The notes beneath the pieces were generated by a model that did not search any database, was not told the origin of the DNA, and worked only from the letters and a program-made list of their open reading frames with translations. A program made the translations under genes and the position numbers. This document shows positions 14,130-59,965 of a DNA stretch of 64,000 nucleotides, in pieces. The stretch comes from an uncultured Dehalococcoidia bacterium (GTDB lineage: Bacteria; Chloroflexota; Dehalococcoidia; DSTF01; RBG-16-68-14): the NCBI GenBank assembly GCA_964418365.1, contig CAYQLM010000001.1, positions 24,490-88,489 on the forward strand. Reading direction: 5' to 3'. Within the stretch, counting starts at the first letter, position 1; every line of letters starts with the position of its first letter.

Positions 14130-14456
14130 TTAGGGAGCGGGCGTCCGGCGCGGCGAAAGTGCGCCCTGGATCATCAGCGCGCCCGCGATCACGAGCGCGA
14201 TCCCTGCGAACTTCGACCACGCGATGCCCGCCACCGCGCTGCCCGAGCCGGATGCCGGCAGCGTGATCGACTGACGCGGCGGGTGGACGGACACAGGGCC
14301 CAGCTCGGAAACGTACGTCGCGGTCGGTAACGGCGCGGCCGCGACCGATGACGTCTCGCTGAGTGCATGCGAGCTTCCGCCGGCCGCGAGCGAAGCGCCG
14401 ACCGTCACTCCGATGACGGCGAGGAACGTGATAGCGGCGATTGTGGCGAGGCGCAT
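14130..14456 (-). CDS. Small secreted protein with a signal peptide and a C-terminal LPXTG-like sortase sorting signal
   Basis: Internal ATG at 14456 gives MRLATIAAITFLAVIGVTVGASLAAG (signal peptide). The C-terminus has LPASG, a hydrophobic stretch and an RRTPAP tail. The ORF upstream extension to 14753 is probably not translated. Confidence 0.5.
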   Translation of the reverse strand: MRLATIAAITFLAVIGVTVGASLAAGGSSHALSETSSVAAAPLPTATYVSELGPVSVHPPRQSITLPASGSGSAVAGIAWSKFAGIALVIAGALMIQGALSPRRTPAP

Positions 14457-14990
14457 AGCTCCGTAGATAACAAGACCGCCGTCTTCAGCAAGACGGCGGC
14501 TGAAGATCCTCCGAGCGTATCCTCTTCGGTAGCCCGGCTGTCGCTCCTGGAAGTGGAGTCGATCCTGGGGCTTTGCGTGGCCCTTCGCGTGACGGGCCGT
14601 GCCCTTTCGGAGGCTTCTATTCGATTGTTGGGTGGGGCCAGGGGACGCCTGCCAGGCCCCGCCTCCTGAACGCGCGTCCCCTGGGCCCGTAGCCCGATCG
14701 CACCCGCCTAAGGCGGGAGGATCGCTCCAGGAATGGCGAACCATCCCGGCCAAGTGGCTCGCGCTGCGCGCCGGCCCCGGCCTCCTGCTGCCCGGCGGCG
14801 GTCATCGCCTTCAGGGCTTCCCGCCCTGAACTGGACGGTCTACCCGTCCGATAACTCTCTAGGGTGTCTGATCCGACGGCCACCCTTCGCGGACCGGCCG
14901 CGGCGTCGGGTCGGGCCGCATTGTGTCACAGGGTTGGCGATATGTCAAGCGCATCAGCACCCAACGCCTAAAACGGGAGCGCTTTCGGCG

Positions 14991-17072: not shown

Positions 17073-17175
17073 GCCCCCACGTTCCGTCGCAAGCCAAGCC
17101 CTCTAGCGCCCAGGCGCTCCTGCCGAACCTTACCTGGGGACGATTTCGACTCACCCAATTGCGAACGACAAGCTT

Positions 17176-17775
17176 ATGGCACTTGCCACACCGAACATCG
17201 AAGAAGCCAGCCTCGTGCGCCGCGCCATTATGCGCGACCGCGAGGCGTTCGGCGAGCTGTACGACCGGCACGTCGTGCGCGTCTACCGGCACATCTACTA
17301 CCTCGTCGGCAACGCGGCCGAGGCGGAAGACCTCACGGCGCAGGCGTTCCTGCAAGCCTGGGAGGCGATCGACCGCTATCAGATGCGTGGTGCGCCCTTC
17401 GTTTCGTGGCTGCTGCGCATCGCGCACAACCTGGCCGTGAGCCACCTGCGGTCACGCAAGGACCGCTCGGAGCTGCCGGACACGCTGGTGGACCACAGCC
17501 GCCTGGGCAATCCGGAGGAAATGGTCCAGCAGACCGCGGAAGGTGAGCGCGTTCGCGCTGCGATTCTGCGCCTGCGCGAAGAGCAGCGTCAGGTGATCAT
17601 GCTGCGCTTTGTCGAGGACCTCGAGTACCCGGAAGTGGCGGAGATCGTCGGGAAGAGCGTCGCGGCCGTACGCGTCATCCAGCACCGCGCGCTCAACGCG
17701 CTGCGAAAGCAGATCGGAAACGAGCCCACGCCGGTGCGCCACCGCAGAGCGACTCGTTTCTCAGCCTCCGGTTAG
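17176..17775 (+). CDS. ECF-type RNA polymerase sigma factor (sigma-70 regions 2 and 4)
   Basis: 199 aa; region 2 (YRHIYYLVGNAAEAEDLTAQAFLQAW) and region 4 (EQRQVIMLRFVEDLEYPEVAEIVGKSVAAVRVIQHRAL). Confidence 0.88.
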   Translation: MALATPNIEEASLVRRAIMRDREAFGELYDRHVVRVYRHIYYLVGNAAEAEDLTAQAFLQAWEAIDRYQMRGAPFVSWLLRIAHNLAVSHLRSRKDRSELPDTLVDHSRLGNPEEMVQQTAEGERVRAAILRLREEQRQVIMLRFVEDLEYPEVAEIVGKSVAAVRVIQHRALNALRKQIGNEPTPVRHRRATRFSASG

Positions 17776-17776
17776 T

Positions 17777-19030
17777 CTACGCGGCGTACGCCTGCTGCGG
17801 CGCCTTCTCCGTTTCGCTCGACGTCGCGATGCTCTCCTGCGCTGGCCAACGGAACGACACGCAGAGATAGCCCGCGAGCACGAAGAAGCCCGTCAGCGAT
17901 AGCCCCTGGATCGCGATCACGGGCAGGACGAACAGCAGCGTAAACGATAGGAGCAGCGCGTTCGTCGCGCGCCGCGTCGCTTCGACGCTCGAGTTCGCCG
18001 TAAGGTACGCGCGCAGCGCAAGCGTCGCGGGTAACAGCATGAGCACCAGGCTCTGCGTGTGTACGTGTGGCGAAGCGATCAGCGGCAGCAGCACCGCGAT
18101 GCTGTAGTCGCGTTCGAGCGAGCCGCTGGCCCGCCAGCGCGCCACCGCGACCGCGATCGCGCCCGCCGCGATGATCGCGGAGCCCGGCGCCCAGTAGACT
18201 AGCCTGTCGCTGTTCGTCGCGCTGACGATGAAGCCCCGCCAGTTGGCCATGAACTGCGCATTCACCGTCAGCCGTCCGCCTGAGCCGTACGTGGCCAACT
18301 CCTTCACGTTGTCGAACAGCGTCGATGGGGCGGTCAGCAAGGCCGGGACGATCAGGAGCGCTAGGCCGGCACACGCCAGCGTTCCCAGCGTCCGCCAATC
18401 ACGTCGCAGTAGTAACAGGAGTACGACGCCGATCAAGAAGTGCGGCTTTATGAGCACGAGGCACAGGGTCAGGCCGGCGAGCACGCGTCGATCTGCGCGC
18501 AGGAGCAGGTAGCCGCCCAGCAGGCCAGCCAGCGCGACAAGATCGACCTGGCCGAAAACGATCGTCGCGAGCGAGGGCATGGCGAAGGCGGCGCAGGCGA
18601 GAAACAGCCAGCGCACACGCCCGGGAAGGTCTTTGAGCTCCTCGCCGAGCAGCCGGAGCAGGCCGCCTAGCAGGCAGGCCATCAGTGACATGTAGAGGGA
18701 GAACGCGGCCGTGAAAGGCAACCGCGATAGCGGCGCGAAGAGCCAGGCGGCGAAGACGGGCAGGGGGTAGCCGATCGCCTCGTCGAAGCCGCCCGGGTAC
18801 AGGTGGCGCTGGGTCGCTTCGATGGCCGCGGGATCGTAGAGGTGGGCGCCATGGCCCGTTCGAACGAGGAATCCCGCGGCGTAGAACGACAGGAAATCGC
18901 CGGTGGCGCCGTAGGCGTTCGTCGCGATGTGCTGGAGGACCGTCCCGAAGATGGCGATACTGCCGGCGGCGGCGATCGCGGCCGCCGCGGAGAGCGCCAC
19001 CGTCAGGGCCGAGAACTCTCGGAGCTTCAC
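17777..19030 (-). CDS. Polytopic membrane glycosyltransferase-like protein (DUF2029/GT87-like)
   Basis: 417 aa, about 10 TM segments, motif TNAYGATGDFLSFYAAG typical of DUF2029 mannosyltransferase-like proteins. Confidence 0.55.
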   Translation of the reverse strand: MKLREFSALTVALSAAAAIAAAGSIAIFGTVLQHIATNAYGATGDFLSFYAAGFLVRTGHGAHLYDPAAIEATQRHLYPGGFDEAIGYPLPVFAAWLFAPLSRLPFTAAFSLYMSLMACLLGGLLRLLGEELKDLPGRVRWLFLACAAFAMPSLATIVFGQVDLVALAGLLGGYLLLRADRRVLAGLTLCLVLIKPHFLIGVVLLLLLRRDWRTLGTLACAGLALLIVPALLTAPSTLFDNVKELATYGSGGRLTVNAQFMANWRGFIVSATNSDRLVYWAPGSAIIAAGAIAVAVARWRASGSLERDYSIAVLLPLIASPHVHTQSLVLMLLPATLALRAYLTANSSVEATRRATNALLLSFTLLFVLPVIAIQGLSLTGFFVLAGYLCVSFRWPAQESIATSSETEKAPQQAYAA

Positions 19031-19247
19031 CTCCCTAGCATCGACTCACCTTCATCTTACGGGCAGTCTGCGAAGCCCCTATCGGCCGGAGTTCGAGTCT
19101 GGAGCCGCATGTCTTTCGACCCCTTCAGATGGGCTAGGGGTTTACCGATGATGTCATCAGGGAACACACGTAAGGGAATGCCCGGCGAACATGGCGCTCC
19201 TAGAGCGGCCCGCGTCGGAGTCTGGAGAAGGGAAAGGAGGACAACGA

Positions 19248-19463
19248 ATGCAACTGCTCAACGAAGCGCTGCTGCGTATCCTCACCGGTTGGCACGGGCT
19301 TCAGGCTCGGGCGCAGGATGAGGAAGGGCAGACCCTGGCGGAGTACGGCCTGATTATGGCCGTCATCGCCGTGGCGGTCGTGGTTCTTGCGGTGACCGTG
19401 TTCCGCAACGCGATCGTGGGTGCCTTCAACGGCGCCGTCGACTGTCTAGACGGAAGCTGCTAA
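19248..19463 (+). CDS. flp: Flp-family type IVb prepilin, copy 1
   Basis: Leader MQLLNEALLRILTGWHGLQARAQDEEG, then QTLAEYGLIMAVIAVAVVVLAV (Flp G/xxxxEY motif). ATG 19248 with a GGAAAGGAGG Shine-Dalgarno. The ORF N-terminal extension from 19191 is unlikely. Confidence 0.85.
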   Translation: MQLLNEALLRILTGWHGLQARAQDEEGQTLAEYGLIMAVIAVAVVVLAVTVFRNAIVGAFNGAVDCLDGSC

Positions 19464-19479
19464 CCAGCAGCGGATTAGT

Positions 19480-19515
19480 GAAGAAGGGCCCCGCTCTGCA
19501 GCGGGGCCCTTCTTC
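19480..19515 (+). terminator. Rho-independent terminator after flp copy 1
   Basis: Perfect 15-bp stem GAAGAAGGGCCCCGC-tctgca-GCGGGGCCCTTCTTC, then TTCTGG. Confidence 0.7.
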
Positions 19516-19746
19516 TTCTGGCAAGCTGCTGTTCCGAAATATGGATGTCAATTTCCACATTCCATGTTCGTGAAAGATGTCGCAAGCCGATACTAGCACT
19601 AGGAGTAGACATGTAGCCTTCGGCGGTAAGCACAAGGATGGTGCGTAACGGTTCGCCACCGAAGACTGTTCCAACTATTGGACGCCCGGCGATAAGACGG
19701 AGATTCCTCCGCCCGTCGGAGCCTGTGAAGGAGGGAGGGCAAACAT

Positions 19747-19962
19747 ATGCAACTGCTGAATGAAGCCCTGCTCCGCATCCTCACTGGGTGGCACGGGCTC
19801 CAGGCTCGGGCCGAGGACGAGGATGGGCAGACGCTGGCAGAGTACGGCCTCATTATGGCCGTCATCGCCGTGGCGGTTGTCGTCCTGGCCGTGACCGTGT
19901 TCCGCAACGCGATCGTAGGGGCCTTCAACGGCGCCGTCGACTGTCTAGACGGAAGCTGCTAA
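19747..19962 (+). CDS. flp: Flp-family type IVb prepilin, copy 2 (tandem paralog)
   Basis: 71 aa, identical mature region. Two conservative leader differences (Q to E, E to D). GGAGGGAGGG Shine-Dalgarno. Confidence 0.85.
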   Translation: MQLLNEALLRILTGWHGLQARAEDEDGQTLAEYGLIMAVIAVAVVVLAVTVFRNAIVGAFNGAVDCLDGSC

Positions 19963-19993
19963 GCGCAGCCATCCCGCGAACATGCGACCGCGC

Positions 19994-20020
19994 GGAGGGG
20001 GTCCCCTTCGGGACCCCTCC
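19994..20020 (+). terminator. GC-rich hairpin after flp copy 2 (terminator-like, no U-tract)
   Basis: GGAGGGGGTCCC-cttc-GGGACCCCTCC. Confidence 0.4.
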
Positions 20021-20170
20021 GGCGGCAACGCCAGGAGACTCGTCCTCGGCTGGGGCGGGCCTTATAAAGCCCGACTCGAATCCGACCGATACATCTCATA
20101 GGCCTGCATAAGGCCGAAGGCTCTATCTCATTCGATAGGCCGAGTATTCCACTGGTAGCGAGGGAAGCGC

Positions 20171-21010
20171 ATGGCTCAGACAATCACGACCGCTGCAGTT
20201 AGTCGAGTAAACCGCCGGTTTCTGCTCCTGGCCATCGTACTGGCCATCTTGAGTGCGGTGCTGGTCTACGCCCAGCTCTCTCACTCGGGCTCCAATAGCA
20301 GCAGCAGCTCGGGCGGCGGCGATGTGTCCGTTGTCGTGGCGAAGGCCGCGGTTCCGGCCGGGACACGGATCACGGCAGACATGGTCGAAATTCGCTCGTT
20401 CGGCCAGAATGACGTGGGCTTTCAGGCCCTGACCGCAAGCGAGCAGGCTGTCGGACAGGTCGCGCGCTATCCGATCGCCGCGGGCGAGCAAGTGCTGTCG
20501 TCGAAGCTCGTCGACACAACGGTCTCGTCCAGCAGCAACCTCGCCTTCGTCCTCCAAAACGGCATGCGCGGCGTCGCGATGCACGTCGACCCCGTGACGG
20601 CCGCCGGCGGGCTCGTGTTGCCGGGCGATCACGTGGATGTGCTGTGGATCCCGTTCAAGGCCGCGCCCGTATACATCATGCTCTCGGACGTCGAAGTGAC
20701 CGCGGTAAGCCAAACCGTTGTCGATGTGGCGCCCGCGGCTCCTGGTCTGCAAAAGGACCCGAACGCACCGCAGACGGGCAATCGTACGCGCATCTCGGAA
20801 GGCAACCCTGACCCGGCGGCGGACACTGTGACGTTCATGGTGTCGCCGGAACAAGCAATGTCGCTGATCTGCGGCACGAGCATTGCGCAGGCGTATGGCG
20901 GGACCATCAGCCTGTCAGTGCGGAGCTTCGGCGACACGGCCCCGCTGGCGGTCAATGCGCCGCCTTGTCCGCCGACGGAGCTGATGCGACAGCTGGGGAT
21001 CATTCAGTAG
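20171..21010 (+). CDS. cpaB: Flp pilus assembly protein CpaB/RcpC (SAF domain)
   Basis: 279 aa, N-terminal TM (FLLLAIVLAILSAVLVYA), SAF-like VAKAAVPAGTRITADMVEIRSF. Confidence 0.8.
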   Translation: MAQTITTAAVSRVNRRFLLLAIVLAILSAVLVYAQLSHSGSNSSSSSGGGDVSVVVAKAAVPAGTRITADMVEIRSFGQNDVGFQALTASEQAVGQVARYPIAAGEQVLSSKLVDTTVSSSSNLAFVLQNGMRGVAMHVDPVTAAGGLVLPGDHVDVLWIPFKAAPVYIMLSDVEVTAVSQTVVDVAPAAPGLQKDPNAPQTGNRTRISEGNPDPAADTVTFMVSPEQAMSLICGTSIAQAYGGTISLSVRSFGDTAPLAVNAPPCPPTELMRQLGIIQ

Positions 21011-21049
21011 CGCGTAGCAACACGCGAAGACGCGGAGAGGCAGGAGACC

Positions 21050-22243
21050 GTGCCACGCGACCCTGAAATCATCATTGTCGACCCCGACCTCGATACTCGG
21101 GCCGACCTGAAGCATATGCTCGGGCTCGCGAAGCTGGCGGTCGTGGGCGAGGCGGACTACGGCATCGAGGCTGCCACCGTCTCCCAGGAGCACCCGCCGG
21201 ACGTCTTCCTCATCAGCATGGAGGAGCCGGCCGCCCGCGCGATCCAGACAGTGGAGATGCTCGGCTCGGTGGCGCCGCGCGCGGCGATCATTGTCTACTC
21301 CTCGTTGACGGATGCGGCGTCGGTCCGCCGCGCGATGGTGGCCGGGGCGCGTGACTATTTGATCAAGCCTCTCCGTCCCGAAGACGTCAGCCGCGCCGTT
21401 TACGGCATCCTCGAGCAGGAGGAGCGCCGCCGGCTTCAAACGGAAGGCGACCACAGCGAGGCGGTCGCGCACGGCACCGTGGTTACCATCTTCGGTGCGA
21501 AGGGTGGCATTGGAAAGACCACCATCGCGACCAACCTCTCGGCCGCGCTCGTGAACACGACGCAGTCGAACGTGGCGCTGGTCGACATGGACACACGCTT
21601 CGGCGACGTCGCCATCATGATGGACATCGCCGTGGAACATAGTATCGCCGACCTGGGCCGGCGAATCGACTCTCTGGACCGCGAGTCGATCAAGGACAGC
21701 CTCGCGCGGCACCACACCGGCGTTTCGATCCTGCCGGCGCCGCTGCACCCGACGGAGTGGCGTGACCTGACGCCGCAGCACATCGAGCGGATCGTCGACT
21801 TGCTGGCCCAGGGCTATGACTGGGTCGTCATCGACACGCCCGGGACGTTCAACGAGATCATCGCCGCGACGCTGGAGATCGGCGACATCATCCTGCTGGT
21901 CACCAGCATGGACATCGCCAGCATCAAGGACACGGCTCTGGCGCTAGAGATGCTGCGAGCAGCCGATGTATCAGAAGACAAAGTGAAGCTGGTCATCAAC
22001 CACTCCACATCGGCGAACAGCCTGCGTGAGGAGGATGTGGAGCGGGTGCTGGAGTACAAAGTGACCTGGCGCATTCCGCACGATTACAACGTGGCAAGCG
22101 CGAACCAGCTCGGCATTCCTATCGTAACGGCGAAGCCGTACGCTCGTGTGTCGCGCGCCATTGTGGATATGGCCTATGACCTTACGGGCGTTTCCAGAGA
22201 GCGAAAGGGCTTCCTGGAGCGGTTCCTGGGCCGGGCCTCGTAA
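21050..22243 (+). CDS. tadZ: Flp pilus assembly protein TadZ/CpaE (receiver-like N-domain plus ParA/MinD-like ATPase)
   Basis: 397 aa, GTG start, deviant Walker A (IFGAKGGIGKTTIATNLS), MinD fold. Confidence 0.85.
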   Translation: MPRDPEIIIVDPDLDTRADLKHMLGLAKLAVVGEADYGIEAATVSQEHPPDVFLISMEEPAARAIQTVEMLGSVAPRAAIIVYSSLTDAASVRRAMVAGARDYLIKPLRPEDVSRAVYGILEQEERRRLQTEGDHSEAVAHGTVVTIFGAKGGIGKTTIATNLSAALVNTTQSNVALVDMDTRFGDVAIMMDIAVEHSIADLGRRIDSLDRESIKDSLARHHTGVSILPAPLHPTEWRDLTPQHIERIVDLLAQGYDWVVIDTPGTFNEIIAATLEIGDIILLVTSMDIASIKDTALALEMLRAADVSEDKVKLVINHSTSANSLREEDVERVLEYKVTWRIPHDYNVASANQLGIPIVTAKPYARVSRAIVDMAYDLTGVSRERKGFLERFLGRAS

Positions 22244-22273
22244 CACAACTCAGGGAAAGAAGGTTAGCGAGAG

Positions 22274-23623
22274 ATGAGTCAATTCTCGTGGCACCCACGA
22301 AGCGGAAGCGGAACTGAAACTCCGGAGCGGCCGTTCCAGCGGCGCAGCCAGAGCGTCGAGGCCGTCAATGAGCTGAAGTTCACGCTGCACCAGCGCCTCA
22401 TCGAGGAGCTGGACCCGACCAAGCTCCAGGGGCTGGAGCCGGATCGCGCGCGCGACGCTGTCGTCGCCGCCGCGCGATCGCTCATCGCTCAGGAGATGCC
22501 GGGCATCGTCGGCGCCGTGCGCGACGAGCTCGTGCAGTCGGTCGCGGACGAAGTGCTGGGCCTCGGCCCGATCGAACCGTTGATCAGGGACGTAGCCGTC
22601 TCAGAAGTGATGGTCAACGCCCCCGATCAGGTCTTCTATGAGAAGGAAGGCCGGCTCTATCTGAGCTCCGTTCGCTTCCGCGATCAGGCGCACATCATGC
22701 GCATCGTCGAGCGCATCGTGGCGCCCCTTGGCCGTCGTGTGGATGAATCGTCGCCTATGGTGGACGCTCGTTTGCCCGATGGCTCCCGCGTGAACGTCAT
22801 CATCCCGCCTGTCGCGCCGAAGAGCCCGACGATCACCATCCGGAAGTTCCAGGCCGACAAGATGACGATCGAGGACCTGATCGGCATCGGCAGCTTGACG
22901 CGCGAGCTGGCGGAGTTCTTCCGGGCCTGCGTACAGGTGCGGCTGAACATCATTGTCTCCGGCGGTACCGGCACCGGCAAGACGACCATGCTGAACGCAC
23001 TCTCGTCCTTCATTCCAGACACCGAGCGCATCGTCACCATTGAGGACCCGACGGAGCTCAGGCTCCAGCAGGGCCACGTCGTGAGCCTTGAGGCGCGGCC
23101 ACCCAGCCTGGAGGGCAAGGGTGAGGTGACGCAGCGAGACCTAGTCCGCAATTCGCTACGTATGCGCCCCGACCGCATCATCGTCGGTGAGGTGCGCGGC
23201 GCGGAATCCTTCGACATGATGCAGGCGATGAACACCGGCCACGAAGGATCGCTCGGCACGGTGCACGCCAACACGCCCCGAGACGCCCTCGCCCGTATCG
23301 AGAACATGGTCCTGATGGCCGGGCTCGATCTGCCGATGCGCGCGATCCGCGAGCAGATCTCTTCCGCGATCCACATCGTCACCCAGCTCACCAGGATGGC
23401 CGACGGGACGAGAAAGGTCACGCACGTATCCGAGATCGCCGGCATGGAGGGCGACATCGTGACGATGCAGGACCTGTTTCGGTACGAACAGCGTGGTGTG
23501 GACAGCGACGGCCGTGTCATCGGTGAGTTCCGCGCGACGGGAATCCGCCCGCGCTTCGCAGAGAAGTTCGAAGTAGCCGGCATCCGGCTGCCGCCGGACA
23601 TGTTCATGCCGGGAAGGCTGTAA
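22274..23623 (+). CDS. tadA: Tad secretion ATPase TadA/CpaF (VirB11-like)
   Basis: 449 aa, Walker A (VSGGTGTGKTTMLNAL), Walker B/Asp box; His box region HTGHEGSLGTVHAN. Confidence 0.92.
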   Translation: MSQFSWHPRSGSGTETPERPFQRRSQSVEAVNELKFTLHQRLIEELDPTKLQGLEPDRARDAVVAAARSLIAQEMPGIVGAVRDELVQSVADEVLGLGPIEPLIRDVAVSEVMVNAPDQVFYEKEGRLYLSSVRFRDQAHIMRIVERIVAPLGRRVDESSPMVDARLPDGSRVNVIIPPVAPKSPTITIRKFQADKMTIEDLIGIGSLTRELAEFFRACVQVRLNIIVSGGTGTGKTTMLNALSSFIPDTERIVTIEDPTELRLQQGHVVSLEARPPSLEGKGEVTQRDLVRNSLRMRPDRIIVGEVRGAESFDMMQAMNTGHEGSLGTVHANTPRDALARIENMVLMAGLDLPMRAIREQISSAIHIVTQLTRMADGTRKVTHVSEIAGMEGDIVTMQDLFRYEQRGVDSDGRVIGEFRATGIRPRFAEKFEVAGIRLPPDMFMPGRL

Positions 23624-23626
23624 GCC

Positions 23627-24595
23627 ATGGACCCAATCGCGCTCTTAACCGCCGCTTCGGTCCTCGTGGCCGTCCTCTCGTTCGGCCTGGCGTTTGCTAC
23701 CACGCCGGTGAGCGCGCAGATGCGCGCTCGCCTCCACGGCGTGCTCGCCGCTCAGACCGGCATCGCTGACCGCGGCGCCTCGGACGCGCCGCTGCGGGCG
23801 CGCCGCGGGCTTGGCGTGTTCCAAACGCTCATCTCTGGTGGCTGGCTGGCGCGGATGGAGACAGACCTTCGCCTGGCGGACAGTCGGCTCCACCCGGGCG
23901 ATTACCTCGCGCTGCGGGTCGGGGTGGCAGGACTGGGCTTTGTCGCGCCGTTTCTCGCCCTCGGCGGGGGGATGGGCCTCATTCTCGGAATCATCGCCGG
24001 CGCGGCCGGGTTCCAGGTGCCACAGTTCTGGATCGGCAACCGAAAGGCCAGCCGCGCCAGGAAGCTGGAGGCCCAGCTCCCGGAAGCGCTCACGATGGTG
24101 GCGAACTCGCTCAAGGCCGGCTTTGGCTTGCTGCAGGCGCTCAGCCTTGCCGCAGAGCAACTCGAACATCCGGTCAGCACGGAGCTCGCGCAGGCCGTGC
24201 AGGAGACGAACATCGGCTCCAGCGTGGAGGAAGCATTCCGTCAGCTCAGCGAACGGAATGGCAACTACGATCTCGACATGGTGGTGACCGCGATCATGGT
24301 GCAGCGGACGGCTGGCGGTAACCTGTCCGAGATCCTGGAGACGGTCACCGCAACCATGCGCGAACGCGTGCGCATCAAGGGCGAGATCCAGACGCTTACC
24401 GCGCAGCAGAAGCTGACGGGAATCGTCATCGCGCTGCTGCCGGTAGGGGTGGCTGGCTTGTTCGTTGTGATCAGCCCGGAATACATCAAGCCTTTGTTCA
24501 CGGACCCGCTGGGCCGGGTCATGCTGGGCGTGAGTACCTTCCTTGAAGTCATCGGCGTGCTCGTGATCCAGAAGATCCTGTCAATCGAGGTGTAG
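23627..24595 (+). CDS. tadB: Tad inner-membrane platform protein TadB (T2SS F domain)
   Basis: 322 aa, GspF-like domain, TM segments. Confidence 0.82.
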   Translation: MDPIALLTAASVLVAVLSFGLAFATTPVSAQMRARLHGVLAAQTGIADRGASDAPLRARRGLGVFQTLISGGWLARMETDLRLADSRLHPGDYLALRVGVAGLGFVAPFLALGGGMGLILGIIAGAAGFQVPQFWIGNRKASRARKLEAQLPEALTMVANSLKAGFGLLQALSLAAEQLEHPVSTELAQAVQETNIGSSVEEAFRQLSERNGNYDLDMVVTAIMVQRTAGGNLSEILETVTATMRERVRIKGEIQTLTAQQKLTGIVIALLPVGVAGLFVVISPEYIKPLFTDPLGRVMLGVSTFLEVIGVLVIQKILSIEV

Positions 24596-24600
24596 GCGTC

Positions 24601-25506
24601 ATGCCAATGCTTGCCGCGCTAGTCTTCGCTTCCGCTGTCTTCGTATTCGTCCTGTCCTTTAGTGGCGGCGAAGCGCGCATTCGCTCTCGCCTCCAGGCGC
24701 TGCGCGGCCCCGACGTGCATGACCAGTCACGCGAGGCGCTCACGCTGAAGCAGCGCATGTTTCTGCCCATCACGGACGGCATCATGCAGTCTGTGTCGCG
24801 CTACCTGCCGTCCGGCGTCATGTCGCGCATGGAGGAGAAGCTGGTGATCGCTGGCGAGCCGATGTCGGCGAACACGTTCATGGCCGTCCGGCTGATCTGC
24901 TTCGCGTTGCTGGCGGGTCTGCCCGTGCTGCTGCTTACGGCCGGCATGATCAAGCTGAGCATGACGGGCATCGTCTTCATCGGGGCATTTACGGTAGCCG
25001 GGATCATGCTGCCCACCGTGTGGCTGTCGCAGCGCGTAGGGCAGCGTCAGAGCACGATCATCAAGAGCCTACCCGATGCCTTCGATCTCATCACGACATG
25101 CGTGGAGGCTGGCCTCGGACTGGACGCCGCGCTCGCCCGCGTCGCGGACAAGGTCGAGGGCCCGTTCGCCGATGAGCTATCGAGGGCGTTGCGCGAGATC
25201 GGTCTCGGCAGGATGCGCCGTGAAGCGCTACGCGAGCTCGGTTCGCGCACTGGCGTGCCCGACCTGATCACGTTTGTCAACGCCGTGATTCAGGCTGAAC
25301 TTATGGGCTCCAGTGTCGGTGCGGTGTTGCGCGTACAGGCGGAACAGCTTCGCATGCGCCGCCGCCAGCGCGCGGAGGAGCAGGCCTACAAGGCGCCGGT
25401 AAAGATGATCTTCCCCCTTGTGCTCTTCATCTTCCCGACGCTCTTCATCGTCATCTTGGGCCCGGCCATGATCACGATCATGAAGGACTTTCCTGGCGGG
25501 AAGTAG
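24601..25506 (+). CDS. tadC: Tad inner-membrane platform protein TadC (T2SS F domain)
   Basis: 301 aa, second GspF-like paralog directly after tadB. Confidence 0.82.
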   Translation: MPMLAALVFASAVFVFVLSFSGGEARIRSRLQALRGPDVHDQSREALTLKQRMFLPITDGIMQSVSRYLPSGVMSRMEEKLVIAGEPMSANTFMAVRLICFALLAGLPVLLLTAGMIKLSMTGIVFIGAFTVAGIMLPTVWLSQRVGQRQSTIIKSLPDAFDLITTCVEAGLGLDAALARVADKVEGPFADELSRALREIGLGRMRREALRELGSRTGVPDLITFVNAVIQAELMGSSVGAVLRVQAEQLRMRRRQRAEEQAYKAPVKMIFPLVLFIFPTLFIVILGPAMITIMKDFPGGK

Positions 25507-25515
25507 CCGGCTGGC

Positions 25516-25860
25516 GTGCGGATAACCAACCAGACGAAGGGGACGGAGCTGGCGAGCGCTGCTCGCGTCGCCCGCAGCCTCTCGTCTCGAACCATTGGCT
25601 TGCTTGGCAAGCGCGCGTTGCCTCAGGGTGAGGCGCTCGTCATCGATCCCTGTTCGTCGGTTCACACCGCCTTCATGCGCTTCACGATTGACGTCCTGTA
25701 CCTGGACCCGTCGAAGCGTGTCATCAAGGCCGTCGCGGATCTGAAGCCGTTCCGCATCAGCGGCGTCCTGCGCGGCAAGTGTTCGGTGATCGAGCTGCCG
25801 CGGGGCGCTATCGCCGCGAGCAACACTGCCCCCGGCGACCAGCTCGCCTTCGATTCCTAG
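25516..25860 (+). CDS. DUF192 (COG1430) domain protein
   Basis: 114 aa, GTG start; motif RTIGLLGKRAL...GEALVIDPCSSVHTAFMRFTIDVLYLD typical of DUF192. Confidence 0.65.
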   Translation: MRITNQTKGTELASAARVARSLSSRTIGLLGKRALPQGEALVIDPCSSVHTAFMRFTIDVLYLDPSKRVIKAVADLKPFRISGVLRGKCSVIELPRGAIAASNTAPGDQLAFDS

Positions 25861-36127: not shown

Positions 36128-38464
36128 TCAGTTGCAGTTCTGGTGGTACAGCCGCGCGATCAAGAGGATGTCGTCGGTGCTCATCTTGCCGTTCGGCGGG
36201 CCTAGGTTCCAGTAGTTCGGCCCGACGAGTGTCCGGTCGTAGTCAGGTGAGTAGTCCGGCGAGCTCGACGTCTGGCCATACTGCCGAGCGACGAGGAGGA
36301 CGTCAGCCATCGTGTGCTGCCCATCGTGGTTCGGGTCGAAGAAGTCCCACTGGTTCACCGGGTCCCGGCGTCCGCCGAACCACTCATTGGGCCCGAGCTC
36401 CCGCGTATCGCCGCAGGCATCGTGGTCTGTATCAGCGCCCGAGCCCTGGTCGAGGTTGGTGGGTGAGGCGCAGTGAATGTGCACCGAGTCCGCGACCTGC
36501 GTACCGCCCTTCGTGTAGGAGTTCAGCCAGATGCGGTTGCCGTAGATCGATGGGCGGTTGAAGAAGCTCACGGTCGCGCCGGCGCCGCCGACGATGTCGA
36601 TCTGGCCAGCGGTCGTCCCCGCGCCACAGGAGAAGTGGATGTTGGCCAGGATTCCGCGGTAGCTCTCCAGCGTGCCTTTGCATACCAGGACGTACTGTCC
36701 GGGTTGGCCGTTCGCCGGCTGCGTAAGCGTATCTGAACCGTAGTTGGGGCAACCGGGCCAGCGGTTCTCCGTGATCCCCTGCTGGTCCCAGAGCGTGAGG
36801 TTGCCGGTGTAGCGGATGACGATCTGGTAGCCGCTGAAACCTCTGGGGGGCGGCGAGCTCTTTACATCGACGCTGAAGAACGAGCTCGGCAGCAACGAAC
36901 ATGTTCGGCCCACAACTCCCGGCCCGCACACGAGCGGCGACTTGCTCCAGTTCGGGTAGACCAGCTCTTGCATCGCTGGTCCAGGCACGTCCGTCGGAGA
37001 CGGCGTAAAGGTCGGCGTGCTCGTGCGGGTGGCCGTCCGCGTCGGCGTGTTGGTCTTCGTCGGCACCAGCGTTGCGACTACCACCGTGCTTGTCGGTGTG
37101 CTCGTGCGCGTCGGGCTAAAGGTCGGCGAAGGCGTAGCCGTCGCCGTATTGGTCGGCGTAAAGGTGTCGGTCGGTGTATTGGTCGACGTTGGCGTGTCGG
37201 TCGGCGTGAAGGTGTCCGTCGGCGTCGGCGTCTTGGTCGCCGTGCCCGTTGCTGTTGGCGTAAAGGTGTTCGTCGGCGTTGCGGTGTCGGTCGGAGTATC
37301 GGTCACCGTGGGCGTGTCGGTGACCGTTGGCGTGTTGGTCGGCGTGAACGTCGGCGAAGGGGTGATGGTATTGGTCGGCGTGAAGGTATCCGTCGGCGTC
37401 GGCGTGATCGTCGGCGTATCCGTCGCCGTAGGAGTGTCTGTCGGCGTCGGCGAATGAAGGAACGTGGGGGTCACCGTCGGCGTGCTGGTCGGCGTGCTGG
37501 TGGCCGTTGGCGTGAACGTGTTGGTTGCCGTTGGTGTCGCTGTGTCGGTTGCGGTCGCCGTGTTCGTAGGCGTGCTGGTAGCCGTATTCGTCGCCGTATT
37601 CGTCAGTGTGTTGGTGGGCGTATTCGTTGCGGTGTTCGTTGCCGTACTGGTGGGTGTCGGGGTTCGGGTGGCCGTATTGGTCGGGGTCGATGTGATGGTA
37701 GGCGTCCGGGTGGCTGTTGGCGTCAAGGTGCGCGTCGGCGTCAAGGTAATCGTTGGCGTCCGAGTGGCTGTTGGCGTCAAGGTCCGCGTCGGTGTCCGCG
37801 TTGGAGTCAGCGTGGGGCCCCCCGGCGTGATCGTACGGGTTGGCGTCGACGTGATCGTCGGAGTCGGCAACACCTGGCAGTTAATCGTCAGCGACTCGTC
37901 CGCCGCCTCCGAGTGCGGCGCTAAGCTTGCATCGACAAGGTCAGTACTGCCGTCCCCGTGTACAAGGGTGAGGATCCCCTGTCCGACGCTGTCGCAATGG
38001 AAGTCCAGATGCATGAGCTGGCCGACGTAGAAGGAGGTGCCGAAGGACGCGCAGGCGGTCTTCGCGTCGCCGGCGCCAAAGCCGCCTTCACCGGTCGGGA
38101 ATGTGCAATCCGGCCAGTTGCCCGCCCCCTGCTGTGACAGGGAGCCGGCGGCGTAGCTGATCGCGCCGGAGTACATAATCTCCACGTCATAGCCGGCGTA
38201 TCCGCCGGCCGTGAGCGCGGCTCCAAGGGCCTTGACGTTGAAGCCCACCGTGAAATTGGCACCACTGCCCGCGATGCACGTGGTTGGCCCCGAGCTGCTG
38301 TCGCACGTGCCCGTTGAGATCGAGAGGTCGAGCCCTGGTTCGACGACGGCGTGGGCGTTGCCCAAATGACTTGCCAGGAGCCAGCTAACGGTGCCTAGCG
38401 TAGCTACGACGAGGACGAGGGCAACAGCGAAGCGTGGGGAGTACCAGATGCGCAAATTCGCCAT
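36128..38464 (-). CDS. Secreted protein: two paralogous Cys-containing domains separated by a roughly 315-aa Thr/Pro linker, with a C-terminal dockerin-like module
   Basis: 778 aa, signal peptide. The C-terminus has [24 protein letters not shown]...[23 protein letters not shown]. Roughly 65% identical to the C-terminus of the 58118-59965 protein. Confidence 0.75.
36920..37865 (-). repeat. Extended low-complexity coding repeat (TPTxTxTPT linker) within the 36128-38464 gene
   Basis: Degenerate 6-12 bp periodicity (GGCGT/GGTGT/GTCGG). It generates spurious ORFs on other frames (e.g. 36968..37924, 37017..37457, 37464..38030). Confidence 0.8.
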
Positions 38465-58117: not shown

Positions 58118-59965
58118 TCATGAGCAGTCGTGGTTGTACTGTCTTACGCTGTCCAGGATGTCATCGATGCGGATCTGGCCGTTCGGTGCCCCCAGGTTCC
58201 AACTGTTCGGGCCGATATAGGTGCGGTCGTAGTCGCTTGAGTAGCCCGCATCGCCTGTGTTCTTCCCGTAATGCGACGCAACGAGAAGGACATCATCGAT
58301 GCGGTTCTGGCCGTCGTGCGACGGATTGAAGTAGTCCCAGGGGTTGAGGTAGTCGCGCCGGCCACCGCTCGTCTGGCTGCCGATGGCCGTCTGCTGCTCC
58401 TTCAGGTCGGGACAGCCGTCGCCGTCGCTGTCTCCGGCCGTGCAGGCCACGGCGTTGTCGTAAAAGACCTGCTGGCCGGTGGCGGTGTTGCCCGTCCACA
58501 CCGCATGCGCGACCCGGCTGATGACCGCCACGCCGATGTACTCGCCGATGCGCAAGGTGCCCGAAGGGGGGAACCTGTCCGGCGCTCCCAGGTCGGGATC
58601 GAACGCCACGTCGTTGATCCGCACCTCGGGGCCGAAGGTGATGCCGCCGTTGCCGCTACTGCGCATGTACACGTCGAGGAGGAGATCGCCGCTCCCGTTC
58701 GTCGCGCCCGCCCGCGAGTCGTACCATTCAACGGTCAGGCACTGCGAGACAGGGTCGATCGCCGCCGTTGGGAAGAGCTGGTGGCTATTGCCGGGGCCTT
58801 TGTCGACTTGGACGGGCGCGCTCCAGGTCGCCCCGCTGTCGAACGAGCGGGTGATGTAGATAGCGGCGTCGTCGTTCGCGCCGCCATGCGCCGTGTTCGT
58901 GGGGTCATCGGACGCCACGACGAACACGACGTTCGCCGCTGCCGGATCCGGCAGCAGCCAAGCCTGTCCCGACCCGTGTGTCCACGTCCGGTTCTTGTTC
59001 AACGTCCTCGGCAGGCTTTGGATGTTGTACGTGATGTCGCCGTTGCCTGGGGTGTACGCCAGCGTCTTCTGCGGGTAGGTCAGGCCGCCGTCCGTCGAGC
59101 GGGCAACAAATATTTGCGCCGTAGTGCCGTCGGATATGAAGCCCGGCACGGAGCGGTACGAGACATACACGTCGCCATTGGCCGCGACGGCGTTGTGGGT
59201 CGGCGTCACGAGGCCGTCGGCGCCGGTCGAGAGCGTAACCGCCGGTGTCCACGTCTGGCCCTGATCGCCGGACGATGTGGCATTCACTTGATTCGGGATG
59301 ATGCAATTCGCCCCCGTGAACTGCGTCCAGACGATATACAGCCGGTCTTGGAAGGGGCTGCCCGCGAAGCGATCGGCCGCCGACCAGGCCTTGTCATGAC
59401 AGTTGCCGCTGATCCCTGGCAGGTTCACGCCGGGTGATGCTGTGACGTTGACAGGATAGCCCGCGAGGATGGCTCCCGTCGCCGGATTCACCTGCGCAAT
59501 GAAGATATCGATCTCGTTGTAGTTTGTGGCGATGCAGCCGAGGTACGTCCAGAAGAGCCGTCCGGCGCTGTCGAACGCTAGCGACGAGTCTCCGCATAGG
59601 ACGTGCGTCCCGGGGACAGATTCCGGTGTGGCAGTGGACCAGTTGATACCGGCGTCTGTTGAGACACGCAAGCTATACAGGTCGGCCGCCGCGATGTTCA
59701 TCGAGTTCAGCGGGTTCGCGGCGATGGCCGGCTCGTTCGTGCCACCAAAGGCAACATCCGCGCCCGCTGAACCTGCGGCCTGACCTGCACCTCGCGTGGG
59801 TAAGCTCGGGGCGCCCACCGCTGGCACGGCCGAGGGGCCGACGGAGGCCGGGGGCTGCTGCGCCGAGACGTCGTCGAGAAGGAGGGTGAGACTCGCGAGG
59901 ACGAGCGCCAGGGCAAGGAAGAGCACGACAGGAATCCGAGGTCTTGCGCGTCGAGAGGAAGGCAT
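58118..59965 (-). CDS. Secreted BNR/Asp-box repeat (sialidase-like beta-propeller) protein with a C-terminal dockerin-like module
   Basis: Five Asp-boxes (STDAGINWS, SGDQGQTWT, STDGGLTYP, SFDSGATWS, SGNGGITFG). C-terminus DYFNPSHDGQNRIDDVLLVASHYG...APNGQIRIDDILDSVRQYNHDCS. Start ATG 59965 (GGAGG Shine-Dalgarno); the ORF extends to 60025. Confidence 0.8.
   Translation of the reverse strand: MPSSRRARPRIPVVLFLALALVLASLTLLLDDVSAQQPPASVGPSAVPAVGAPSLPTRGAGQAAGSAGADVAFGGTNEPAIAANPLNSMNIAAADLYSLRVSTDAGINWSTATPESVPGTHVLCGDSSLAFDSAGRLFWTYLGCIATNYNEIDIFIAQVNPATGAILAGYPVNVTASPGVNLPGISGNCHDKAWSAADRFAGSPFQDRLYIVWTQFTGANCIIPNQVNATSSGDQGQTWTPAVTLSTGADGLVTPTHNAVAANGDVYVSYRSVPGFISDGTTAQIFVARSTDGGLTYPQKTLAYTPGNGDITYNIQSLPRTLNKNRTWTHGSGQAWLLPDPAAANVVFVVASDDPTNTAHGGANDDAAIYITRSFDSGATWSAPVQVDKGPGNSHQLFPTAAIDPVSQCLTVEWYDSRAGATNGSGDLLLDVYMRSSGNGGITFGPEVRINDVAFDPDLGAPDRFPPSGTLRIGEYIGVAVISRVAHAVWTGNTATGQQVFYDNAVACTAGDSDGDGCPDLKEQQTAIGSQTSGGRRDYLNPWDYFNPSHDGQNRIDDVLLVASHYGKNTGDAGYSSDYDRTYIGPNSWNLGAPNGQIRIDDILDSVRQYNHDCS

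Follow-up and report, generated by a model that had tools for sequence, protein, structure and literature searches.

Tandem genes for Flp pilins are known from the Pasteurellaceae, with two copies in A. actinomycetemcomitans and three in H. ducreyi that show 50-80% mutual similarity (PMC3201912). The leader of the A. actinomycetemcomitans Flp1 prepilin comprises 26 amino acids (aa), which is at the top of the quoted range of 6-26 (PMC4471445). Several Chloroflexota have no reported type IV-like filaments besides Tad pili, which are candidates for adhesion and surface motility in these bacteria, and the Tad loci of Chloroflexales comprise rcpC-tadZABC, tadEEG and flp; the same paper is silent on flp copy number, on a neighboring extracytoplasmic function (ECF) sigma factor and on elements in untranslated regions (UTRs) (PMC7332563). 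Here we describe two flp genes in a 64,000-nucleotide (nt) stretch of contig CAYQLM010000001.1 (assembly GCA_964418365.1, positions 24,490 to 88,489) from an uncultured Dehalococcoidia bacterium, hereafter referred to as the window, in which the pair lies directly upstream of cpaB-tadZ-tadA-tadB-tadC (20171-25506). We consider it probable that these two tandem genes are functional, encode the major pilin Flp and form the start of a secretin-less cpaB-tadZ-tadA-tadB-tadC operon, that the pair is old, that its 3' tail has undergone gene conversion, and that its members form separate cassettes.

The window locus resembles the Pasteurellaceae tad loci (flp-1/flp-2 and flp1-flp2-flp3) in having tandem flp genes at the operon head, the G/XXXXEY processing motif and a long leader (PMC3201912, PMC4471445). 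Unlike the Pasteurellaceae copies, which encode different mature proteins (PMC3201912) and are described as members of one polycistronic operon, those of the window have identical mature products, and each seems to be equipped with a promoter-like motif and a UTR element of its own. The host also differs, being represented by a metagenome-assembled genome (MAG) of the Chloroflexota, and the window locus contains no rcpA/secretin or tadV gene. The Chloroflexales loci, from the same phylum, share the core order rcpC/cpaB-tadZ-tadA-tadB-tadC together with flp (PMC7332563), whereas no tadE or tadG homologs were found in the window. Among 50 related loci, a single flp gene was counted in 27, two in 20 and three in 3, so that 23 of them carry tandem copies; the tandem arrangement itself is ordinary for the family. 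In a full-text literature search, no paper was found that combines flp pilin, tad and gene conversion, and none that joins Flp pilin, Chloroflexi and tad.

Both flp open reading frames (ORFs) are 216 nt long and occupy the plus strand at 19248-19463 (copy 1) and 19747-19962 (copy 2), at an offset of exactly 499 nt. Their common 71-aa product reads MQLLNEALLRILTGWHGLQARA(Q/E)DE(E/D)G up to the predicted cleavage site and QTLAEYGLIMAVIAVAVVVLAVTVFRNAIVGAFNGAVDCLDGSC after it, with the leader at residues 1-27 and the mature pilin at residues 28-71. The two copies differ at 22 nucleotides located between gene positions 12 and 174. Twenty of these differences are synonymous, and the other two are conservative non-synonymous changes, Q23E and E26D, both in the leader; beyond Gly27, the two 44-residue sequences do not differ. 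The original prediction of two Flp genes about 500 bp apart with identical mature pilins was thus borne out, and its count of about 18 differences in the first 150 nt and two in the last 70 nt came close to the actual distribution: nt 1-144 contain 20 of them, nt 171 and 174 account for the remaining two, and the final 42 nt are identical. Over the whole gene, the synonymous divergence (dS) equals 0.50 and the non-synonymous divergence (dN) 0.013 by the Nei-Gojobori method. By region, dS is 0.75 in codons 1-48, 0.13 in codons 49-71 and 0 in the last 13 codons, which agrees with the uneven divergence that had been predicted. Since the mature part shows no amino-acid change against 10 synonymous differences, both copies are kept by strong purifying selection (dN/dS about 0.03). 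Outside the ORFs, little similarity was detected in a gapless comparison. A gapped alignment adds approximately 70 nt of shared 5'-UTR, beyond which the flanks of the two genes are unrelated. An alternative start at 19191, which would extend the copy 1 product to 90 aa, was rejected on two grounds: nearly all of the 120 homologs listed are 69-73 aa long and align from residue 1, and positions 19191-19247 are occupied by a conserved UTR stem and the Shine-Dalgarno sequence.

The same two genes, also with the 499-nt spacing, are present in the sister genome L003 (JBGQHA010000024.1), an independently assembled MAG that is ~96% identical to the window over 1.2 kb. The window and L003 agree at sixteen of the sites by which copy 1 can be told from copy 2, and therefore the duplication is older than the split between these two genomes. 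In agreement with the dS of about 0.5, the duplication is old. The closest genomes are all MAGs of uncultured Dehalococcoidia or other Chloroflexota.

The identity of the 3' ends is, in the favored explanation, the result of short-tract gene conversion, which homogenized at least 42 and up to ~75 nt of the tail; the support for this is moderate. The minimum extent of the proposed tract is 19422-19463 in copy 1, which equals 19921-19962 in copy 2 (42 identical nt, plus strand). A comparative set of 13 close sequences from five sources was used to analyze it. Between genomes, no part of the gene varies more than the tail: in the other genomes, 17 of 39 sites vary in the last 39 coding nt, compared with 46 of 174 sites upstream. 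For this reason, the identity of the tails within the window is not due to nucleotide or protein constraint, and constraint at the nucleotide level was rejected as an explanation. The original prediction had left a choice between gene conversion and strong constraint on the C-terminal tail; the former part stands as the better account, while the latter fails on this hypervariability. When only the sites variable in the clade are considered, the window copies differ at none of 18 in the last 42 nt and at 22 of 54 upstream (13-sequence set), and permutation over these sites yielded p = 0.010 for the longest run and p = 0.0004 for the terminal run. Over the first 174 nt, copy 2 is separated from all genes of the other genomes by 27-34 nt; its tail is as near to their genes as the tail of copy 1.

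Comparison of the window with L003 revealed an incongruence along the gene. Sixteen sites in nt 15-174 follow the pattern expected of orthologs, whereas the sole informative site of the tail, nt 193 (codon 65, Asp/Asn, D65N), follows the within-genome pattern: it differs between the window and L003, yet the two copies of either genome share one state. Being a single site, it gives modest support. Conversion of the tail has probably been recurrent, having taken place more than once; the mechanism as such is deduced from these patterns in the sequence. Concerted evolution by short-tract conversion between bacterial paralogs is known for tufA and tufB. Like that pair, the window genes are old paralogs with one fully identical segment, in which substitutions appear in both copies within a lineage. 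Specific to the window are the very short length of the tract (42 to ~75 nt) and its confinement to the 3' end of a 216-nt gene.

Several observations weigh against conversion. A plain codon-level permutation test for the longest run was not significant (p = 0.10). The case is built on one 42-nt tract and one co-varying site, and no general homogenization of 3' ends was seen in other genomes with tandem flp genes, so that a rule of this kind across genomes was discarded. These other pairs range from near-identical cassettes to copies that are 30% diverged. At the near-identical end, the two cassettes at L009:3541-4216 have 5 nt differences between their ORFs and identical 5'-UTRs and upstream P1 motifs (described below), which points to a very recent duplication or to conversion of a whole cassette, unlike the old pair of the window. 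We therefore weighed an explanation without any conversion, in which the synonymous differences would be clustered by chance and either the C-terminus or an RNA element over the 3' end would be under purifying selection. The codon-level test is compatible with it, each copy has a small hairpin across its stop codon, and the within-genome pattern is confined to nt 193, while nt 171 indicates that some sites mutate recurrently. Nevertheless, we regard this explanation as unlikely. Constraint does not account for complete identity in the region that is most variable between genomes (17/39), and the clustering becomes significant once variable sites serve as the denominator. In addition, D65N has changed in both copies together, and the 5' rate of 22 differences per 174 nt predicts about 5 in the 42-nt tail. 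The stop-codon hairpins themselves are located at 19456-19471 (GCTGCT-AACC-AGCAGC) and 19955-19969 (GCTGC-TAAGC-GCAGC) of the window, and the sequences following the stop codons are otherwise unrelated.

Beyond the tail, the arrangement of signals around the two genes suggests that each flp is a self-contained cassette composed of a promoter-like motif, a 5'-UTR stem-loop, a Shine-Dalgarno sequence, the ORF and a 3' hairpin, which is a plausible reading. The Shine-Dalgarno sequence GGAGG, as read from the sequence, precedes the ATG by 7 nt in copy 1 (19236-19240) and by 8 nt in copy 2 (19734-19738). The promoter-like motif P1, CCCCTTCAG-N16-CCGATGATG (19120-19153, plus strand), is located ~95 nt upstream of copy 1. 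It has a single match in the window, where none is expected, and is conserved in about 30 related loci, where it is found 57-110 nt before the single flp gene or the first of several. A second putative promoter motif, P2, TTCGT-N15-CCGATAC (19567-19593, plus strand), is located ~155 nt upstream of copy 2 and is common to the third flp gene of locus L002 (GTTCGTGAA...GCCGATACT) and nearly so to L003.

Downstream of copy 1, folding predicted a terminator-like GC-rich hairpin of 16 bp followed by TTCT (19480-19515), which is conserved in L003. This hairpin precedes a T-rich sequence similar to TTCTTCTTCT and was also found by a terminator consensus scan. A GC-rich hairpin is likewise predicted after copy 2 (19988-20025), with its stem kept in L003. 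Its loop is reverse-complemented between the genomes, CTTC in the window and GAAG at L003:4740-4777. The 71-nt segment downstream of copy 1 folds at -44.5 kcal/mol (z -6.4 relative to shuffles), and the segment downstream of copy 2 at -43.6 kcal/mol (z -4.0). Across 186 distinct related flp genes, 94% have a hairpin of -20 kcal/mol or below within 90 nt downstream, compared with 34% of random segments. Searching Rfam at a permissive E-value over 18500-20700 returned no known RNA family; only sub-threshold hits of small RNA families fell on the terminator hairpin, at 19-26 bits against gathering scores of 39-90.

The 5'-UTR stem-loops were recognized by motif conservation and folding. The element of copy 1, GCCCGGCG-[25-nt distal hairpin]-CGUCGG-A-GU, occupies 19180-19222 and that of copy 2, GCCCGGCG-[22-nt distal hairpin]-CGUCGG-A-GC, occupies 19684-19723, both on the plus strand. 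Among the distinct instances collected from related loci, the consensus GCCCGGCG-[loop]-CG(U/C)CGG-A-GC ends 20-24 nt upstream of the ATG in 44 of 50, and its six central stem pairs are intact in all 50. Pair 6 is formed by G and U in 35 instances and by G and C in the other 15, in keeping with an RNA of the sense strand. The arms are spaced either by a loop of 3-5 nt or by an insert of 18-29 nt, and such variable spacing argues against a dimeric DNA operator. In all 22 cases with a long insert, the element is predicted to form one extended hairpin with the basal stem present in the minimum free energy structure, and these elements fold better than controls with shuffled inserts (mean z -0.91, t = -4.9). 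Over 669 kb, 61 of the 72 occurrences of the motif are located no more than 40 nt upstream of a flp ATG. The basal stem is nearly invariant, and thus covariation is uninformative either way. With RNAalifold on MAFFT alignments, the variable inserts and register shifts were misaligned; hence explicit pair counts and folding tests were used. Candidate roles for the element include mRNA stabilization, processing, or a protein-binding site.

In sister clades with leaders of 25 and 29 aa, the 5'-UTR contains another hairpin, whose stems covary and whose GCCCUCG loop is conserved, for instance at L016:3942-3972, L028:3645-3675, L117:930-960 and about 40 other loci. Its stem positions are paired in 73.7% of cells, compared with 24-54% when the partner is slid, and its covariation score of 0.348 (0.22 in shuffles) was reached by none of 500 shuffles. 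Because the loop is complementary, with one G-U pair, to an AGGGGGA Shine-Dalgarno sequence ~20 nt downstream, this hairpin may act as a translational control element.

The 10-mer GAGTCTGGAG, which the original prediction had singled out upstream of copy 1, does occur at both places named, 19095-19104 and 19218-19227 on the plus strand, and exactly twice in the window (0.14 expected). Its proposed role as a regulator-binding site was not upheld, given that both copies are mutated in the sister genome L003 (AAATCTGGAG and GAGCCTGGAA). The first copy is in the part of the intergenic region with the lowest conservation, and the second inside the 3' arm of the copy 1 UTR stem. The repeat is most likely coincidental.

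The self-contained nature of the cassettes suggests that the two flp genes are probably transcribed separately, and short, abundant mRNAs would then be made from each of them, uncoupled from the assembly genes. Duplication would supply dosage or differential expression rather than structural diversity, because both genes yield the same mature subunit. Independent regulation, as originally proposed, is plausible on these grounds. The further claim that each copy has its own Shine-Dalgarno sequence and terminator holds with respect to the former and to a strong 3' hairpin at both genes; the T-rich run is found after copy 1 only. Against separate transcription stand the missing U-tract after the copy 2 hairpin, a scan with the sigma-70 consensus in which no promoter was found, and the derivation of the promoter motifs from conservation alone. 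Promoter and terminator activity is accordingly named here as putative. In A. actinomycetemcomitans, termination after flp-1 reportedly leads to an excess of pilin transcript (Kram et al. 2008, J Bacteriol 190:3859, 'a termination cascade'); the hairpin after each flp of the window resembles this arrangement.

A different view of the second gene would be that it is silent, either a reserve cassette of the kind used in pilS-type antigenic variation or an incipient pseudogene, with copy 1 alone expressed. Copy 2 is indeed without the P1 motif that precedes the first flp in most relatives, and its 5' part diverges more than any other in the clade. We consider such silence very improbable, however, as copy 2 has an intact ORF with its own Shine-Dalgarno sequence, conserved UTR stem-loop and 3' hairpin, and its mature part shows no amino-acid change despite 10 synonymous differences. 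The P2 motif is also shared with another lineage, the gene is conserved in L003, and an identical product would give no variation. Expression of both cassettes remains the preferred reading.

The assignment of the two genes as Flp pilin paralogs of the Tad (type IVc) pilus follows from several features of their predicted products. Pfam family Flp_Fap (PF04964) matched copy 1 with 31.8 bits (E 1.2e-7) and copy 2 with 31.3 bits (E 1.8e-7). The processing motif G/XXXXEY is exact in both, as DEEG27/QTLAEY in copy 1 and DEDG27/QTLAEY in copy 2, and G27, E32 and Y33 are invariant in 26 homologs. The motif is followed by the hydrophobic stretch GLIMAVIAVAVVVLAVTVF within the mature pilin of 44 aa. 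The family profile matches solved Tad pilins, namely Caulobacter PilA (8u1k, E 2.1e-4) and a Flp pilin (8u2b, E 1.2e-3), and aligns query residues 29-65 with residues 2-37 of these 45-aa mature proteins. Since query residue 29 corresponds to mature residue 2, cleavage is placed after G27. The AF2 model contains a leader helix at residues 2-23, a break at 24-29 and a single long helix at 30-68 (pLDDT 83-96), and this predicted shape is the one expected of a Flp pilin. Together with the tad operon downstream, these matches corroborate the original assignment. The prepilin would thus consist of three parts: a cytoplasmic leader of 27 aa, a processing site after Gly27 and a single-helix pilin of 44 aa.

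The homologs make up over 815 clusters at 90% identity; most of the 120 listed are full-length with 71 aa, and nearly all close homologs carry a precomputed PF04964 match. A leader of 28 residues had been called unusually long; by the G/XXXXEY rule it comprises 27 aa, and leaders of 22-29 aa are normal in this subfamily, where they predominate among the best 150 representatives at 50% identity. A Cys66-x4-Cys71 pair is conserved at the C-terminus. Exactly two C-terminal cysteines were found in 81 of these 150 representatives, while 47, mostly more distant ones, have no cysteine. The Caulobacter prepilin has a short leader of about 14 aa. Caulobacter crescentus PilA (8u1k) and the 8u2b pilin resemble the window proteins in the register of the mature part and in the single helix, which is predicted here; unlike PilA, which has no cysteines, the window subfamily combines a conserved leader of 22-29 aa with an invariant C-terminal cysteine pair. 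Some related pilins have C-terminal loops rich in Ser and Thr, for example CLNNAPSSSAC. An orphan pair of flp genes outside any tad locus (L001:5642-7476, JGI Ga0643780_0000637) adjoins DsbA/thioredoxin-like and redoxin genes, which fits a need of the invariant Cys66 and Cys71 for disulfide formation. At L011, another orphan flp gene still has the P1 motif.

Two points tell against the pilin assignment or complicate it. Both PF04964 scores fall 0.4-0.9 bits under the gathering threshold of 32.2, and no A24 prepilin peptidase, TadE/F/G pseudopilin or secretin was found among the ~40 ORFs scanned in the window. Leader processing consequently cannot be tied to a local gene. The prepilin peptidase must be encoded elsewhere in the genome, and the leader would be removed by an A24 enzyme encoded outside the window; processing of the products and their assembly into a pilus are predicted from the motif and the gene context. 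The sub-threshold Pfam score might also suggest that the ORFs encode small secreted or membrane peptides with a leader, for instance bacteriocin-like ones with a C-terminal disulfide, that merely resemble Flp. Most classical Flp pilins are likewise without the Cys-x4-Cys tail, in line with the cysteine-free representatives mentioned above. This explanation is hardly credible in view of the exact G/XXXXEY motif, the profile matches to solved Tad pilins in the correct register and the synteny with cpaB-tadZABC in 18 related loci, and no gene for a bacteriocin transporter or immunity protein is adjacent. As for the chance that the duplication is an assembly artefact, produced by the collapse or expansion of a repeat or by merging two strains into a chimera, the probable metagenomic origin of the window and the fact that its closest relatives are all MAGs give it a little room, but it is negligible against 22 differences between the copies, unrelated flanks, the same architecture, spacing and paralog-specific sites in L003, and arrays of 2-3 tandem flp genes in 23 of 50 related loci.

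A gene for an ECF sigma factor of 199 aa was identified by Pfam and NCBIfam at 17176-17775 on the plus strand; its best NCBIfam match, the BldN family, is below the cut-off. In 17 loci this gene is syntenic with flp, directly upstream of it, with 68-97% identity. The sigma gene of the window is itself preceded by the motif CCCTCTAG-N16-CCGAAC (17100-17127, plus strand), which is conserved in relatives, where CCCTCTAG-N16-CCGA(T/A)CC was found in at least 15 loci. The P1 boxes of flp, CCCTTCAG-N16-CCGATGA, have the same shapes and the same 16-nt spacer. A relaxed form of the motif gave 78 matches, compared with ~25 in shuffled sequences (3-fold), 42 of them upstream of flp and most others upstream of the sigma gene. 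Its occurrences in the 64-kb window are limited to sites upstream of the first flp gene, of the sigma gene and of the gene for a small LPASG-type surface protein (motif at 14525-14553, minus strand), and to one further site at 58189. An autoregulated ECF sigma factor that also drives flp would fit this shared motif.

The LPASG-type protein is encoded by an ORF of 108 aa (14133-14456, minus strand) with a signal peptide, the LPASG motif, a hydrophobic segment and a basic tail, which looks like a sortase-type sorting signal. This ORF is divergent from the VWA-sigma genes, and the promoter-like motif preceding it has the architecture CCCTyyAG-N16-CCGA(T/A), which is common to the sigma gene and flp copy 1.

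Combining these elements, we tentatively envisage the flp genes of this Dehalococcoidia clade as modular cassettes under a dedicated, autoregulated neighboring ECF sigma factor (CCCTyyAG-N16-CCGAT) and a previously undescribed cis-acting RNA stem-loop in the 5'-UTR (GCCCGGCG...CGYCGGAGC in the window's clade, the hairpin with the anti-Shine-Dalgarno-like GCCCUCG loop in sister clades), with a pilin supply tuned by sigma and with conversion serving co-assembly; we rate this as possible and rather doubtful. If it is true, tandem copies would allow a differential, sigma-tuned supply of pilin, and conversion would preserve the identity of the exposed Cys-loop tail, which would let the subunits of both genes co-assemble.

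The five assembly genes downstream of the flp pair are all located on the plus strand. They comprise cpaB/rcpC (20171-21010; Pfam, and NCBIfam TIGR03177 CpaB above cut-off), a tadZ/cpaE-like gene for a protein with REC and ParA-type ATPase domains (21050-22243; Pfam), tadA/cpaF (22274-23623; Pfam and the NCBIfam TadA family), and tadB (23627-24595) and tadC (24601-25506), both assigned by Pfam. Directly after tadC and in the same orientation is a DUF192 (COG1430) gene (25516-25860), which may belong to the operon. Between the sigma gene and flp, the window contains a gene for a GT87-family membrane glycosyltransferase (17777-19030, minus strand). This insertion is restricted to the closest relatives (7 loci), and L002:3496-5355 adds a GtrA-like gene. 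Given the GT87 neighbor and the loops rich in Ser and Thr, glycosylation of the pilin is conceivable. A megablast search against a plasmid collection gave no match. Elsewhere in the window, a secreted protein of 778 aa (36128-38464, minus strand) has a central low-complexity linker of ~330 aa built of Thr-Pro-Thr-x repeats. The DNA of this linker is degenerate, with TRF periods of 12-54, and gives rise to spurious 'VGVxV' ORFs on the plus strand (37017-38030).

Taken against the textbook arrangement, the window locus is distinguished by identical mature products, one cassette per copy, a partly converted tail, and the sigma and UTR elements. The regulatory leads, that is, the 5'-UTR hairpin and the link to the ECF sigma factor, are the only part that might be new, and the accepted picture of how Tad pili work is unchanged by these findings. 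As a small and clear-cut case, the locus illustrates how pilin paralogs may be partly homogenized by gene conversion. It also indicates two candidate regulatory elements: a hairpin in the 5'-UTR that is conserved, and a promoter of the ECF type that flp would have in common with the adjacent sigma gene. Uncultured Dehalococcoidia-like lineages are abundant in soils and sediments, and the very large environmental Flp subfamily to which the window genes belong typically carries one to three self-contained pilin cassettes.

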